A stretch of DNA of 64,000 nucleotides from a virus. Positions within the stretch are counted from its first letter, which is position 1; each line of letters opens with the position of its first letter. Positions 3,817 to 12,751 of the stretch are shown piece by piece. Location of the stretch: IMG/VR virus record IMGVR_UViG_3300027763_000036, positions 1 through 64,000 of that record; one strand, written 5' to 3'. The translations under genes were made by a program, and so were the position numbers. The notes under the pieces were generated by a model. That model was given only the letters and a program-made list of their open reading frames with translations, did not search any database and was not told the origin of the DNA.

Positions 3817-4239
3817 TTATTTTAAATATCCAAGAGCTCTAGACTCTTTCGGGTTTAAGTGTAACCAATCATGGCAGTTCCTACAGACCGCAAGCCATGT
3901 AGACTGCACTAAATAAAAAGCATCTCTATTAGCACCAGAATGTGTATGGTGTACATCTGTGGCATTAATATCACAACCTTTTACTGCTATTTGACACAGA
4001 CTGAAATCTGTAAGAAATCTCTTTCTTAGTTTGAGATACTCTGCATCTTTCTTTTTCCTTTTAGAAGAAACCTGAGGGATTTTATAATCAGTTGGTTTCT
4101 GTATATTATCTTTATTCTTGGGATTTTGGCAACTCCAACAATACTTACAATACTTGAATCCCCCGGTTTCTCCACTTTTCCAGATGTGTTTTTCTAAACC
4201 ACATCCATCACAAATTTTTAATTTAATTTTAATTGACAT
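3817..4239 (-). CDS. HNH endonuclease with N-terminal Zn ribbon
   Basis: CDGC...CKYC; C-x6-C...DVHH...CRNCHDWLH. Confidence 0.75.
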   Translation of the reverse strand: MSIKIKLKICDGCGLEKHIWKSGETGGFKYCKYCWSCQNPKNKDNIQKPTDYKIPQVSSKRKKKDAEYLKLRKRFLTDFSLCQIAVKGCDINATDVHHTHSGANRDAFYLVQSTWLAVCRNCHDWLHLNPKESRALGYLK

Positions 4240-5089
4240 AGACTTCTATATTTGTGATCTCTTTCCATAAATAACCATAAGCAGTTCTCTGTATAACACC
4301 TTTAATAGCATTATCAATAGAGTTATGACTCTTTAGTTTTAACTTTTTCTTTACATCATTAAGAGATGAGAATTTGTTTAATAGTATACCATCAAGTGAA
4401 TACTGTTCAATTATTCTTTTTACTCTACAGTAGTTTCTATTATGTGAAAGAATATAACCTTTTACAGTAACTCTTTTACCATTTAAACCCTCTCTAACAT
4501 GATTTGCTGTAGTATTTAATTGTCTAGCTGTTTCTTCAATAGATTTATAACTAGTAATATATTCAGCTGTTTTAGAAAAGATAAAAACCTGTTTAGATAG
4601 TTTATCAGTCCATGGATCAATAACTTGTTTCTTAAAGGTTTTAAATTGGAAGTTACTAGCTTTATAATCACTTTTACATGACTGATATATAGAAGTTTCA
4701 CTTATACTAAGAACATGAGCAGCTTCTTTTGCTGAAATCCATTCTGCAATAAATTCTCCAGTTAACCTATATTGGTAGACTTTAGTAGAATCTTTCCATT
4801 TATGACCACCAGGAGCCTTGTTCAATAATAAACCATTACCATGAATCTTTCTACCATATTTAGATATAAGTTCAACTTCTTTAGCACAAGCATCTTCTTT
4901 ATTGTCATAGATAGCAATAATACTCACAGAATAATCATTTATAGAGGTATATTCAGTCCATTCAAATTGTCTCTTTCTATTCTTACTATAAGCTCTAGAG
5001 TATTCATTGTTATTAACTGAAGAACCTATACCAACATAAAATACAGTGTTGTCAACAATATTTGTATGAGTGTAAACATAATAATACAT
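4229..5089 (-). CDS. GIY-YIG homing endonuclease with NUMOD1 repeats
   Basis: YYVYTH...VFYVGIG...R...E catalytic pattern; three NUMOD1-like repeats (VYQYRLTGEFIAEWISAKEAA etc.); start moved to 5089, downstream of TATATTTG. Confidence 0.8.
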   Translation of the reverse strand: MYYYVYTHTNIVDNTVFYVGIGSSVNNNEYSRAYSKNRKRQFEWTEYTSINDYSVSIIAIYDNKEDACAKEVELISKYGRKIHGNGLLLNKAPGGHKWKDSTKVYQYRLTGEFIAEWISAKEAAHVLSISETSIYQSCKSDYKASNFQFKTFKKQVIDPWTDKLSKQVFIFSKTAEYITSYKSIEETARQLNTTANHVREGLNGKRVTVKGYILSHNRNYCRVKRIIEQYSLDGILLNKFSSLNDVKKKLKLKSHNSIDNAIKGVIQRTAYGYLWKEITNIEVYVN

Positions 5090-9175: not shown

Positions 9176-10087
9176 CTATTTCTCAGGTGTCATGAATAAG
9201 TCAATGACATTCTGAAATCTAGGATCAACATTGATTCTCAATGCTGCAGCAGCTTTAACATTCAACTCTCGTTGAGCATTAAATTCCATAGTAAGCCTAC
9301 ACAACTCACCTTTGTACTCATCCATAGCAAGAGTATATTCTCTGTTAAGAGCTTCTTCTTGCTTTAGGAAAATAGCAGCTTTATCTGCATTTTCTTTTTG
9401 GATACGTGCATTCTCATCACTAACTAAGTTCTTAACCTTGGCTTTGAAGTAGTTTACACGTTGCTCATACTTGCGGTGCTCTTCAGCAACATCTTCATGC
9501 AATTGCATTAAAGACTGAGAGTCATGATGCTTAGTAATCTTAACAGGAGTTTTCTTATTATCCTCTACATTGAACCATTCAATGCTAGGCATGTTAGATA
9601 ACTCTTTTCTAAGACTAGACAACTTACCATTTTTATGGATAAATTGACCCAAGTGAGATGCCATAGCTTCTACTTGCAAATACTCTGAGTATTCTACATC
9701 AGAAAGTCTAGACCATCCCCATGATTCTTCAACATCTTGAATAACATCATAGTCAGTTGCATACTGTCTCTTAGGTTCCACAAGATGAGAGAAATCAGGA
9801 CGCGTATTCTGGATTCTCTCTATCTCAGCATCTTTACCCTTGATAGCTTCCATAAGGAATGCTTGGCAAGCATGTAAGTCACCCTTGATTTTAAGTTTCT
9901 CAAGGATATTATCCGGAATCACAGATGCCTCTTGCATCATATAAGACTGACCACTAATGGTAATAGTCTTACTGCAGTTGTTATAAGATTCCAACTCACG
10001 TTGAATCTCCAAAGCATTTTGGTTGCACAAGTTAGATACTGATTGTGCTTGGGACATGCTTAAACCCTTGGTAGATAAATTTCTCAT
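9176..10087 (-). CDS. 303-aa alpha-helical/coiled-coil hypothetical protein
   Basis: Long ORF with heptad-rich segments; no catalytic motif recognised. Confidence 0.85.
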   Translation of the reverse strand: MRNLSTKGLSMSQAQSVSNLCNQNALEIQRELESYNNCSKTITISGQSYMMQEASVIPDNILEKLKIKGDLHACQAFLMEAIKGKDAEIERIQNTRPDFSHLVEPKRQYATDYDVIQDVEESWGWSRLSDVEYSEYLQVEAMASHLGQFIHKNGKLSSLRKELSNMPSIEWFNVEDNKKTPVKITKHHDSQSLMQLHEDVAEEHRKYEQRVNYFKAKVKNLVSDENARIQKENADKAAIFLKQEEALNREYTLAMDEYKGELCRLTMEFNAQRELNVKAAAALRINVDPRFQNVIDLFMTPEK

Positions 10088-10140
10088 TGTTTTTTGTTTT
10101 TGAGAGTTAATAAATAAATTGATTTTTAAGTTGATAAAAA

Positions 10141-10166
10141 GAGCAGTTTAACATCATGCTCAGGAT
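10141..10166 (-). ncRNA. Mini H-type pseudoknot, copy 1
   Basis: ATC-CTGAGCAT-GAT...AAACTGCTC, then a U-tract. Confidence 0.65.
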
Positions 10167-10178
10167 AATATTTGAATA

Positions 10179-10535
10179 CTAATCTATTAGATTAGGTTCA
10201 TCTTCCCCTCTAAGATCATAGTTAGTTCTATCATAGAAATCACCATAAGATTCTTCTCTACTGTAGAACTCATCACGGGCAACATCTTCTTGATCATCAA
10301 GATCACTTAACTGATCTTTATATCCTTGTAGTTCTGCTTTAAGTGACTCTATTAATTCTATTTGTTCTTCTCTCCACCATCTGTACTCAAGTGCTTCTTG
10401 ATGTTTGTCTGTTAAATCTTCACAGTCAGCAATTGTTGCAGAAACATTAGGAGTATTATATAAATCATATTCCGCTTGTTCAAGTTCATGAGAAGTTTCA
10501 ACAACAAGTTTAAATAAATCATCTCTTGTAATCAT
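10179..10535 (-). CDS. Acidic coiled-coil hypothetical protein
   Basis: 118 aa, D/E-rich. Confidence 0.75.
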   Translation of the reverse strand: MITRDDLFKLVVETSHELEQAEYDLYNTPNVSATIADCEDLTDKHQEALEYRWWREEQIELIESLKAELQGYKDQLSDLDDQEDVARDEFYSREESYGDFYDRTNYDLRGEDEPNLID

Positions 10536-10563
10536 ATTTTTAAGTTTAATTGGTTACTAATTT

Positions 10564-10693
10564 TTACCCCTCTGCACTCAGTTGTAACACTAATCTTTAA
10601 CCACTATTGATAAGTTGGGTCAAGAAACCATAATTTGTATATATGGTGTTACAACTGCTCACCCTTGGGAAGTGAGTTATGGTGCATTAATAA
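10564..10693 (-). ncRNA. Twister ribozyme (type P1, with long P5 insertion)
   Basis: P1 TTAT/GTAA, L1 UAA, P2 TGCA/TGCA, T2 CC/GG, P4 CTCAC/GTGAG with loop TTCCCAAGG, 3' GA-GGG (T1), 12-bp P5 CAGTTGTAACAC/GTGTTACAACTG. Confidence 0.75.
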
Positions 10694-10719
10694 GAGCAGT
10701 TTGTCTACATGCTCAGGTA
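10694..10719 (-). ncRNA. Mini H-type pseudoknot, copy 2
   Basis: TAC-CTGAGCAT-GTA...AAACTGCTC; covaries with copy 1. Confidence 0.65.
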
Positions 10720-10747
10720 TACGCAGAATATCACTGCCTTTCTATTG

Positions 10748-10880
10748 TGTACTCTCACAAGGTTGCAATCCTTGAATTTGATAGCCTCTGCATATTACTA
10801 TGCTTCATATGCTACTATCTTGGTATAGTATCCACACGCTCAGCATAACTGATTGTGTTTACCTGCTTGGATGAGAGTAT
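10748..10880 (-). ncRNA. Candidate multi-stem junction RNA
   Basis: 8-bp closing stem TACTCTCA/TGAGAGTA enclosing four hairpins; the last (CAAGG-7nt-CCTTG) stacks directly on the closing stem; strand assumed from context. Confidence 0.55.
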
Positions 10881-10994
10881 AATAAATGGCTGTTTATGCT
10901 ATAAACATTTAATACATAGTAATTTGTATGATGAATATTTAACAGGCTAGCTAAACCTGCAGTACTCAACACCCCTATGTAACCATAAAATAAA

Positions 10995-11021
10995 GAGCAG
11001 TTTTATATCCTACTCAGGATA
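10995..11021 (-). ncRNA. Mini H-type pseudoknot, copy 3
   Basis: TATCC-TGAGTA-GGATA...AAACTGCTC, then a U-rich tract. Confidence 0.65.
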
Positions 11022-11026
11022 GTTGG

Positions 11027-11164
11027 TTATCCCAACTGCTCAATAGCAATCGGGAGTCCCTGTTTGTCTAACACTCTTTTTACTGTTTTACCATTAGAGT
11101 ATTTAACATACTGTACAAGGGAGAGGTTACCCTTATACATTTCAATCATAGTTTTGATAATCAT
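11027..11164 (-). CDS. 45-aa hypothetical protein (not in ORF track)
   Basis: MIIKTMIEMYKGNLSLVQYVKYSNGKTVKRVLDKQGLPIAIEQLG*, with an A-rich leader. Confidence 0.55.
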   Translation of the reverse strand: MIIKTMIEMYKGNLSLVQYVKYSNGKTVKRVLDKQGLPIAIEQLG

Positions 11165-11258
11165 AACTTAATATTTTTTAGTGTGAGGACTTGCCTGTGC
11201 TAGGTACACAGGACTTGGGTGTTAATAATAATATTGATTGTGCTCAATATTTAAATAA

Positions 11259-11456
11259 TAGACAAGAGTGTAACAATATCCTACATTGCTACTAGACCGC
11301 TGAGTCATCACTTGAATTAAACTGAATTCCACTTCAGTCAGCTGTATTCTCCCAAGTGGAATCTTGTATAAGAGAATAGATAATGGCATACCACATATTA
11401 CTGCTGCGGTCAACAGGTTCACACTGCCGGATTACTCCCGTGTATAACACTGCCTA
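11259..11456 (-). ncRNA. Candidate ~200-nt structured RNA with an internal pseudoknot
   Basis: Stems TAGGCAG/TTGTCTA and GACCGC/GCGGTC; interleaved TATTCTC/GAGAATA and ATTCCACTT/AAGTGGAAT. Confidence 0.55.
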
Positions 11457-11515
11457 GTTTAAATTAAACTCACATAGCTTTATCAATACTATGTGTAAAA
11501 TACCTGATTTTTAAG

Positions 11516-11701
11516 TCTGCACTAACTTTGGATTATATCACTGCAAATGATAAGTAGCACTATAAATCTCTTTGCAGGAGAAATACAGAACCCAATAGTA
11601 GCCCCACAGGTTTGTCACTGTTTGCTAACAGTAATGAACTTTGCTTGACATCAACAACCCCGTCAAGTATAAACTTGAGTGTAAACCGTATAGAGTGCAA
11701 A
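11516..11701 (-). ncRNA. Candidate ~185-nt structured RNA
   Basis: Closing TTTGCACT/AGTGCAGA; inner ACGGTTT/AAACC-TGT, CTTGAC/GTCAAG, TACTGTT/AACAGTG. Confidence 0.5.
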
Positions 11702-11746
11702 GGTTAAAAACTCCCCCTCAGTTATTTACAGTTGATGTACTAATTA

Positions 11747-11992
11747 TTAAAGATTATCCATAGAGATAATGCTATCAAGGTCACTATATGTACCTTGATA
11801 AACATTACCTTGTAAAGATTCAACTTTAATATTGTTTTCAGATACTTCAAGGAAGTATTCTGTTTTAATGTGCTTAGAAGCTTTCGCGGGAGTTTCTTTC
11901 TTTACAATAACATGTAGTATTACATGTATAAGTATAGAGAAGGAAACACATCCAAGTATAAAGCCAATAAGGAATGAATCATTTGATTTCAT
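11747..11992 (-). CDS. Single-pass membrane protein
   Basis: Start moved to 11992 (MKSNDSFLIGFILGCVSFSILIHVIL), downstream of a terminator. Confidence 0.7.
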   Translation of the reverse strand: MKSNDSFLIGFILGCVSFSILIHVILHVIVKKETPAKASKHIKTEYFLEVSENNIKVESLQGNVYQGTYSDLDSIISMDNL

Positions 11993-12016
11993 ATTTATGG
12001 TTTTAGTTATTACTTT

Positions 12017-12041
12017 AAAAAAATGCAGGCCTTTCACCTGC
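12017..12041 (-). terminator. Intrinsic terminator
   Basis: GCAGG-TGAAAGG-CCTGC-ATTTTTTT. Confidence 0.7.
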
Positions 12042-12237
12042 TTGGGATAATATCCTCAATGGTATGACATTATTGGTTAGTCATACAAGTTGCGGAGAGG
12101 ATTACTGCCTCTCACTCTGTAAGTATAAGTTACATAGATAATCTGTTCCTATCATTTGTTCAAGGATACTGATTAGTATGGATATGGACAATCTTCTGAT
12201 TTCATATTATATGTTTTTAATTGTTAAACAATATAGA

Positions 12238-12405
12238 TTACCCTGCAAGAGAGTAATCCTTTTGCATTACTACCACTAAACCAACTGCTGGATGCTGGTA
12301 TTCATGTAGTACTGTATAACCTTCTTTACATTTCATATGTATAAGGTCTTTAAGCTCTATGCCCATAGACATAGCTTGATCTTCTGTAATGGTAATTTCT
12401 TCCAT
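12238..12405 (-). CDS. 55-aa hypothetical protein (not in ORF track)
   Basis: MEEITITEDQAMSMGIELKD...YSLAG*; leader TAGTAACCAATTAAA shared with the 10535 gene. Confidence 0.6.
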   Translation of the reverse strand: MEEITITEDQAMSMGIELKDLIHMKCKEGYTVLHEYQHPAVGLVVVMQKDYSLAG

Positions 12406-12751
12406 TGTATATTGATTTAATTGGTTACTAGGTAAGCAGTTAGCTATATAAAATCTTTTAACTATACTATACTAGTATAGTAAAATACAGATATATTAGT
12501 GTTAATAAATAGAGAGAGTGTTTAGTAGTAACATAGACTAATAGATTAAAACAAGCTTGTTTCCGCACTGGTTATCAGTAAGTTATGGTTATCCACAGAA
12601 TGTTTGCAATAACAGCAGAGGTACCCTGCGGTGACCGCCACAAAGACAGTCTCCTTTTTTGTCTTATTAAAGATTCCACAGGCTGAAACTCCTTAGAGTT
12701 TCTCCTTTCTAAGCATAACAAGTTGTATTATACACTCCCGGCTCAGTAATT

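Follow-up and report, generated by a model that had tools for sequence, protein, structure and literature searches.

The window analysed here is the first 64 kb (64,000 nucleotides) of a 113.5-kb IMG/VR phage record with a completeness rating of 97%, and the DNA runs containing its sequence carry freshwater or lake labels. The terminase and portal were recognized by PHROG family matches (PHROG/Pfam scan), and the capsid protein is 23-28% identical to the capsids of crAss-like and other large podophages. Among 50,697 deposited phage genomes, no BLASTN match was found for 10400-11900. The genes are carried on the - strand from 1 to ~15.6 kb. Outside the window (genome positions 75930-89264, +), an ORF of 4444 aa contains the sequence DFDGD at residue 2529. 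Motifs of this type are catalytic in two-barrel RNA polymerases, DFDID being the form in the phi14:2 virion polymerase (10.1101/2020.03.07.982082), and this ORF probably encodes the virion RNA polymerase, the enzyme expected to act on the early 12-mer promoters.

The 12-mer in question, AATCTTTAATAA, occurs 16 times in the window with at most one mismatch, against 3.4 copies expected, and none of 100 shuffles reached 16. Twelve of these copies are on the - strand between 11744 and 15625 (4 kb), and those in the cassette array are each found 3' of a GC hairpin and a T-run, ~25 nt ahead of an ATG. As a motif that is over-represented, strand-specific and constantly spaced from early genes, AATCTTTAATAA is a putative early promoter. 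Its twelfth copy (11755-11744, -) overlaps the TAA stop codon (11749-11747) of a 96-aa membrane-protein ORF (12037-11747), just as a first-pass annotation of this DNA had described. We also considered AAGTCCTCA as a second promoter class, which was ruled out by its single intergenic occurrence in the 113.5-kb genome.

Behind this copy lies a leader of ~109 nt (11635-11743, -) that would be lost on cleavage and can form two mutually exclusive hairpins. The first, TCAAGT/ACTTGA (11678-11663, -; TCAAGT at 11678-11673), is chosen by the minimum-energy fold. The second, CTTGAC/GTCAAG (11667-11644, -; CTTGAC at 11667-11662 and GTCAAG at 11649-11644), is the hatchet P0 hairpin and stands just 5' of the cut site, as P0 does, within a few bases, in ~90% of hatchets (PMC4604424). 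It had been noticed earlier that CTTGA can pair with either the upstream TCAAG or the downstream GTCAAG; indeed, all segments are present and complementary, and the relatives sharing this leader retain both options. A switch between the two hairpins is a conjecture, since no covariation tells one from the other. This leader is kept in just 1 of 16 upstream contexts, and its folding alone is no better than that of shuffled sequences (z = -1.39). Upstream, a conserved non-coding stretch with a hairpin (12180-12060, -) is joined directly to the hatchet in some relatives (L026, L028 and L030). Here, the cassette of the 96-aa membrane protein and its own terminator separate the two, which suggests that the present leader is the result of a recent rearrangement.

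On the other side of the RNA unit, a 45-aa gene (11027-11164, -) starts with an ATG 22 nt past the predicted 3' cut, and homologous ORFs of 43-45 aa follow the unit in many relatives. The 45-aa protein belongs to no Pfam or PHROG family, and no flanking protein (45, 55, 96, 118 and 303 aa) gave a match above threshold in the PHROG and Pfam scans. The region had been described as ~1.2 kb almost free of ORFs and as an ncRNA operon. The first part of this description holds in the sense that no ORF exceeds 77 aa in 10536-11746, but the 45-aa ORF is a real conserved gene and the region is therefore not purely non-coding. Further downstream, conservation and RNA contig cover each extend over part of 10995-10536.

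Two short elements recur in this neighborhood. The arrangement CCUGAG-N10-AAACUGCUC is found exactly three times in the 113.5-kb genome, always on the - strand and within 900 nt (11018-10995, 10717-10694 and 10164-10141). Each copy has an ORF or RNA unit on its 5' side and a U-rich stretch on its 3' side; it could be a terminator or processing signal. A 28-nt hairpin element (10775-10748, -), consisting of CAAGG, a loop, CCUUG and then UGAGAGUAC, appears with 96-100% identity at varied places in many relatives. It is the P0 hairpin directly before the hatchet in one of them (L035), and in one lake metatranscriptome it lies under an RNA contig of depth 115.

A hatchet ribozyme and its conserved tail

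The segment 11638-11502 (-) is a hatchet ribozyme (Rfam RF02678), matching the full model (1-133) with 81 bits against a gathering score of 51 and E-values of 1.5e-16 to 3.7e-15. The ribozyme proper (11502-11634, -) has the four stems of the class, namely P1 (UUACUG/CAGUGA), P2 (ACCUG/CAGGU), P3 and a long branched P4. Its core segments CAA, UGGG, GCAG and AAA are all present in the Rfam alignment; the conserved segments of the class are C20-A22, U28-G31, G63-G66 and A73-A75 (PMC6561176). Across 47 copies, the P1-P4 pairs are 94.5-100% paired and the core is invariant. To place the cut, we transferred to the Rfam alignment the numbering of the crystal structure, where A19 is the partner of U1 and P1 is followed by C20-A22 (PMC6561176). 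Self-cleavage is thereby predicted between A11635 and U11634 (UUC-A↓UUACUG, where the arrow marks the cut), U11634 being U1, the first base of P1, and would leave a 5'-OH and a 2',3'-cyclic phosphate. Indirectly, cleavage at the very 5' end of P1 is also indicated by the RNA contigs, whose cover and two joints begin at U11634.

The genome holds only one hatchet, and no ribozyme family is matched on the opposite strand to it (-), even at E<=5. Besides it, an E-value scan of 10000-12600 against Rfam returned chance-level hits to snoR41, MIR169 and SAM-III, and no twister, hammerhead, pistol, GOLLD, ROOL or group I/II intron. The first-pass annotation had assigned excision of the whole 1.2 kb to a twister-like element at 10564-10693. 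No member of the twister clan is found in the scanned interval at E<=5; the ribozyme is the hatchet, which lies inside what had been called the first domain, and the unit that it heads is of 448 nt (11634-11187). The same annotation had closed that domain by pairing TTTGCACT (11701-11694) with AGTGCAGA (11523-11516). The two are complementary, as it stated, but AGTGCAGA consists of the invariant 3' strand of P3 plus the conserved GCAG of L2, unchanged in 47 copies, and therefore cannot close a larger domain. Its supposed partner TTTGCACT is found in 1 of 16 upstream contexts, and the two end up on separate molecules once the RNA is cleaved. A long-range helix suggested by RNAalifold, between GGGGCU of the ribozyme and AGUCCU at the 3' end, was rejected because it breaks P3 and shows zero covariation.

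The hatchet is only the first part of a composite unit (11187-11634, -) of 448 nt and 37% GC, predicted to become a circular RNA. When relatives were reached through the flanking genes, they turned out to be mosaic, with the hatchet present in some and absent in others, and the alignment of those bearing it is strongly conserved for ~315 nt past the ribozyme. This ~315-nt tail is fused to the ribozyme in all copies and matches no family of Rfam 15. A 31-nt pattern from the tail retrieved 25 viral contigs, every locus so found having a hatchet directly upstream (26/26), and a pattern from the 5' part of the hatchet retrieved 46 metagenome DNA contigs. Tail sequence anchors the viral set and ribozyme sequence the metagenome set, and either set confirms the half that its own pattern did not include. 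In total, 47 distinct DNA copies were compared; their lengths run from 385 to 482 nt, with 447 nt as the median, and their GC has a median of 35.5%. No copy contains a long ORF, even when the circle is read three times (the longest ATG-initiated ORF has a median of 47 aa), and neither a second hatchet core, in the manner of a retrozyme, nor the end-to-end junction described below occurs at any locus of this family.

The contexts of these distinct copies number 16 upstream and 23 downstream, and conservation steps coincide with the two cut sites. Upstream of the 5' site, the majority-base fraction is 0.36-0.49, and it is 1.0 from +1. At the 3' site, it is 0.97-1.0 through +3 and then falls to 0.51; the search patterns themselves account for part of the invariance of +1 to +33 and of the 3' motif. 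Unrelated ORFs 3' of the unit (loci L016-L192) often start with AUGAUU (MI...), and so the conservation or recombination borders may extend a few bases into the downstream gene.

We drew the structure of the tail by hand, with 15 helices, and evaluated it on the 47-sequence alignment. Paired cells amount to 97.3%, against 34-41% with slid partners, and 22 pairs are altered on both sides, against 3-10 with slid partners. On four of five measures, none of 500 shuffles reached the observed values. Right after the ribozyme come the hairpins H1 (11495-11471, -) and H1b (11470-11456, -), together spanning 11456-11495, which are 99.6-99.7% paired and have one pair changed on both sides. They are followed by a variable arm (11384-11455, -), whose length and sequence differ among copies, although each version can form a hairpin. 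Next is an H-type pseudoknot (11326-11378, -), with S1 formed by 11378-11370/11353-11345 and S2 by 11362-11354/11334-11326, both 99.3-99.8% paired. The anchor by which the copies were retrieved lies elsewhere in the unit, and three pairs of S1 and two of S2 are changed on both sides. Three covarying hairpins (11230-11314, -) comprise helices 11-14, with 2, 4, 2 and 3 pairs changed on both sides. The members of this stretch are a GAC/GUC hairpin (11306-11295), one with a conserved UAGGA loop (11290-11272) and one closed by AAUAUUGA/UCAAUAUU (11251-11230). The terminal hairpin CCUGUG/CACAGG (11194-11212, -), just 5' of the 3' site, is 100% paired with three pairs changed on both sides, and covariation is strong both here and in the UAGGA-loop hairpin. 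The fold of the tail, pseudoknot included, is thus supported by covariation.

A putative 3' site and end-to-end junctions in RNA contigs

The tail ends in AAGUCC↓UCA (11184-11192, -), a motif shaped as a hatchet site with a predicted cut between C11187 and U11186. AAGUC(C/G)↓UCA closes all 61 copies that are long enough to reveal the end, with AAGUCG in 7 of them, and the 5' site reads (U/C/A)UC-N↓UUACUG in 73 of 75 copies. AAGUCC↓UCA conforms to the Rfam consensus at the hatchet cut, UC-N↓UCA. In hatchets of gut phages confirmed by Rfam, the 5' site itself is often exactly GUC-C↓UCA, and these phages also have a downstream site fitting their own P1. In one large gut cluster, the 5' site is UC-U↓UUAAGG and is matched by UC-A↓UUAAGG ~215 nt past the ribozyme (8 specified bases, a chance of ~0.005 per locus), and another has GUCG↓UCA. 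We infer from these similarities that the 3' end of the tail is a second hatchet site.

A single core could then cut both ends, since the UCA of the 3' site can replace the first three bases of P1 by pairing with the last three (UGA) of its 3' strand. These three base pairs must compete with the 8-bp P1 hairpin, and covariation cannot show them because neither the 3' site nor P1 varies within the unit family. Another pairing is suggested by bases -6 to -2, which in one site per lineage complement L2 of the hatchet: GACUU (11517-11513) with AAGUC (11192-11188) here, and GACGU with ACGUC in gut phages (e.g. L049). This GAC(G/U)U/site helix is missing from the published structure of the hatchet product, where the same bases (A67-U70) made crystal dimers.

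Six metatranscriptome runs contain 10-14% of the words of 10500-12100, and four runs from four studies (freshwater and river metatranscriptomes) were mapped. The contigs belong to relatives that are 85-99% alike, and give neither strand, true ends nor amounts; moreover, RNA libraries can contain DNA. Within the unit and leader, these contigs span 11188-11634 only, with summed depths of up to 221, 84, 60 and 12. Contig depth is 46-221 inside the unit, against 0-5 over the leader, and ~9-10 over the 45-aa gene in two runs. The RNA contigs of 10500-12100 do not reach 11742-12100.

End-to-end junctions, as expected of covalently closed circular RNA (cccRNA), are present among these contigs. In a contig of 488 nt, which corresponds to a 458-nt cycle plus 30, a joint from 11634 to 11188 goes back 447 positions. 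It maps to 11507-11634, then to one extra letter, then to 11188-11534, and its overlap of 30 is that of a ring as printed by a k=31 graph. A second joint, from 11634 to 11258, comes from another study. In RNA sense, the extra letter at the junction is G, which stands at -1 of the 3' site in 7 DNA copies and at -1 of the 5' site in none of 75. The junction G fits only the -1 position of the 3' site, and therefore the join is that of N(-1) of the 3' site to U1, as predicted. Being formed by contigs, this evidence for the junction is good but not final.

Proposed excision as a circular RNA and its alternatives

We suggest that the unit is a phage-encoded, self-excised and probably circular RNA headed by a hatchet, a reading to which we give a probability of about 70%. 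Earlier, the stretch behind the 12-mer was held to yield a structured and processed RNA excised by a ribozyme, and the hatchet, the conserved unit and the RNA contigs bear this out. That annotation is partly confirmed as an observation, and partly supported as an interpretation.

The unit would be expressed together with the early genes, through transcription that probably starts at the 12-mer (11755-11744) or reads through from upstream. The hatchet would cut at 11635/11634 and release the ~109-nt leader. At the frayed end of P1, the 3' UCA may then displace UUA, a C-G pair replacing U-G, so that the same core would cut at 11187/11186. The 5'-OH of U1 could re-pair beside the retained cyclic phosphate, and the ends would be joined by the reverse reaction or by a host ligase of the RtcB type. 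No RtcB or RNA ligase was found to be encoded in the phage genome, and RtcB is present in Bacteroides (control list of the search). The downstream mRNA for the 45-aa protein would keep a 22-nt A-rich leader with a 5'-OH. Our guess is that the circle acts as a stable RNA decoy or sponge, produced as soon as the first minutes of infection.

It is unlikely that the hatchet serves 5' processing only, trimming the leader so that the ribozyme and its tail form a structured 5' UTR with a 5'-OH for the 45-aa mRNA, with neither 3' cut nor circle. Such a role would agree with the position of the unit, which ends 19-35 nt ahead of an ATG in 38 of 43 contexts, and with the cleavage chemistry, in which the entire ribozyme stays on the 3' product (PMC6561176). 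Ribozymes upstream of ORFs are also linked to translation in RNA viruses (PMC13725137). However, 11634 is joined to 11188 in the RNA contigs, with no continuation into the ORF at comparable depth, the conserved 3' motif has the shape of a hatchet site, and the published hatchet RNAs of such size are circular.

Somewhat less probable still is an autonomous viroid-like replicon, whose circles replicate as RNA and whose DNA copies were captured or integrated by phages. The hatchet cccRNAs of Lee et al. (10.1101/2022.07.19.500677) are listed as viroid-like. The circle junction, by combining the better upstream pairing (AAGUC with GACUU of the ribozyme) with the full P1, restores the best version of the ribozyme's own site, and the borders of the DNA copies coincide to the base with the two RNA cut sites across 16 upstream and 23 downstream contexts. 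On the other hand, the ribozyme occurs in one polarity only, and the GC of the unit matches that of the phage. Rather than an RNA propagated with no DNA template, we found a unit encoded in DNA, namely in this 113.5-kb genome, 26 viral contigs and 46 contigs from metagenomes, these more than 70 copies being always just upstream of a gene start, and there is no known RNA polymerase partner. The base-exact borders and the restored site could also mean that the hatchet unit is a mobile element passing between phage genomes through its RNA circle, a viroid-like, DNA-phage-borne bridge to free cccRNA replicators. We regard this reading as speculative and rather unlikely.

An artefact is very improbable as the source of the joint, be it an unsampled tandem duplication in DNA, template switching in the library or the mis-assembly of mixed variants. 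The evidence does consist of contigs, and joints of low likeness in metagenomes can arise from repeats or other organisms. However, joints start from the same base (11634) in two studies, one contig is as long as the cycle plus k-1, the base at the junction agrees with the 3' site variant, and hatchet circles were also found by an independent pipeline (Lee et al., 10.1101/2022.07.19.500677). Furthermore, the junction is absent from two large DNA collections that both contain the linear unit: IMG/VR gave two matches, both by chance and with no hatchet nearby, and 241 million metagenome records gave none. Equally hard to sustain is the first-pass model, in which TTTGCACT/AGTGCAGA closes a large domain, CTTGA acts as a switch and a 1.2-kb ncRNA operon is freed by the twister-like element: the complementary segments and the upstream 12-mer exist and some RNA contigs also span 10554-10877, but the closing helix would take a strand of the hatchet core and a partner missing from most contexts, the twister is not matched, and the leader does not fold beyond chance.

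Comparison with known systems

The hatchet class (RF02678; Li et al. 2015, PMC4604424; Zheng et al. 2019, PMC6561176) was described as four stems (P1-P4) with conserved core segments, a P0 upstream and a cut at the 5' edge of P1, all of which are found here over a full-length match. As differences, P1 in our unit forms a hairpin of 8 bp whose loop departs from the consensus L1, L2 has GACUU where the consensus has GACGU, and the ribozyme is always fused to the ~315-nt conserved tail ending in a second cut site. The class as published has no known genome context or role, and no hatchet was found in any completely sequenced organism (PMC4604424). Since 2015, hatchets have had neither a known host genome nor a job, and in the window one such unit lies in the early region of a freshwater phage whose genome is nearly complete.

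Lee et al. (10.1101/2022.07.19.500677) reported hatchets in 34 clusters of asymmetric cccRNAs of 357-567 nt, mostly aquatic and listed as viroid-like. Their most diverse hatchet cluster is of 440 nt, with 22 members almost all from freshwater and an unusually low GC (~35%). A later review repeats the viroid-like listing and names no host (PMC11721086), and our literature search found no paper tying hatchet cccRNAs to phage DNA. Our unit shares with them a hatchet in one polarity, size, GC of ~35%, freshwater habitat and a circular junction in RNA assemblies, and is a close match to the same kind of RNA, as compared by size, GC, habitat and ribozyme rather than by sequence. In contrast, it is encoded in the early region of a dsDNA phage, directly before a gene start, and is therefore the product of a phage transcript and not necessarily a replicator. 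The hatchet RNA circles of lakes were classed as viroid-like agents with no known host, and DNA phages are indicated here as their source.

Retrozymes and other ribozyme-flanked circular RNA units (PMC5680766, PMC7761336) are also encoded in DNA and bounded by self-cleavage sites, and their ends (5'-OH and cyclic phosphate) are ligated into a small non-coding circle, as predicted for our unit. However, retrozymes carry two complete hammerheads in repeats, while the phage unit has one core plus a 3-nt mimic of the substrate strand at its far end, sits in a phage and shows no sign of reverse transcription. Its design appears to be that of one ribozyme core serving two cut sites to free a ring.

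Among phages, the early stable lncRNAs of the crAss-like phage phi14:2 (g004-g006 intergenic; 10.1101/2020.03.07.982082) come from a similarly gene-poor early stretch of a phage with a giant virion RNA polymerase and are likewise abundant and non-coding; these non-decaying RNAs may be a functional parallel to the circle. Unlike our phage, phi14:2 has no hatchet in its long early intergenic region and yielded no early promoter motif to compare with the clear 12-mer. Instead, the sequence 4031-4502 of phi14:2 (L040, NC_021806), reported as the abundant stable early lncRNA, matches tmRNA with 46 bits against a gathering score of 47 (E 2.6e-16), and may be a phage tmRNA. In gut crAss-like contigs (L049, L061 and L105), up to three hatchets are grouped with RAGATH-9 RNAs and tRNAs in a few kb, ribozyme-rich islands that are unlike the single unit of this freshwater phage. 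If our reading is true, an entire class of viroid-like circles would turn out to consist of phage gene products, and hatchets would acquire a natural role that can be tested. Phages would then count among the producers of small, stable circular RNAs, with a function in infection that is open to probing.
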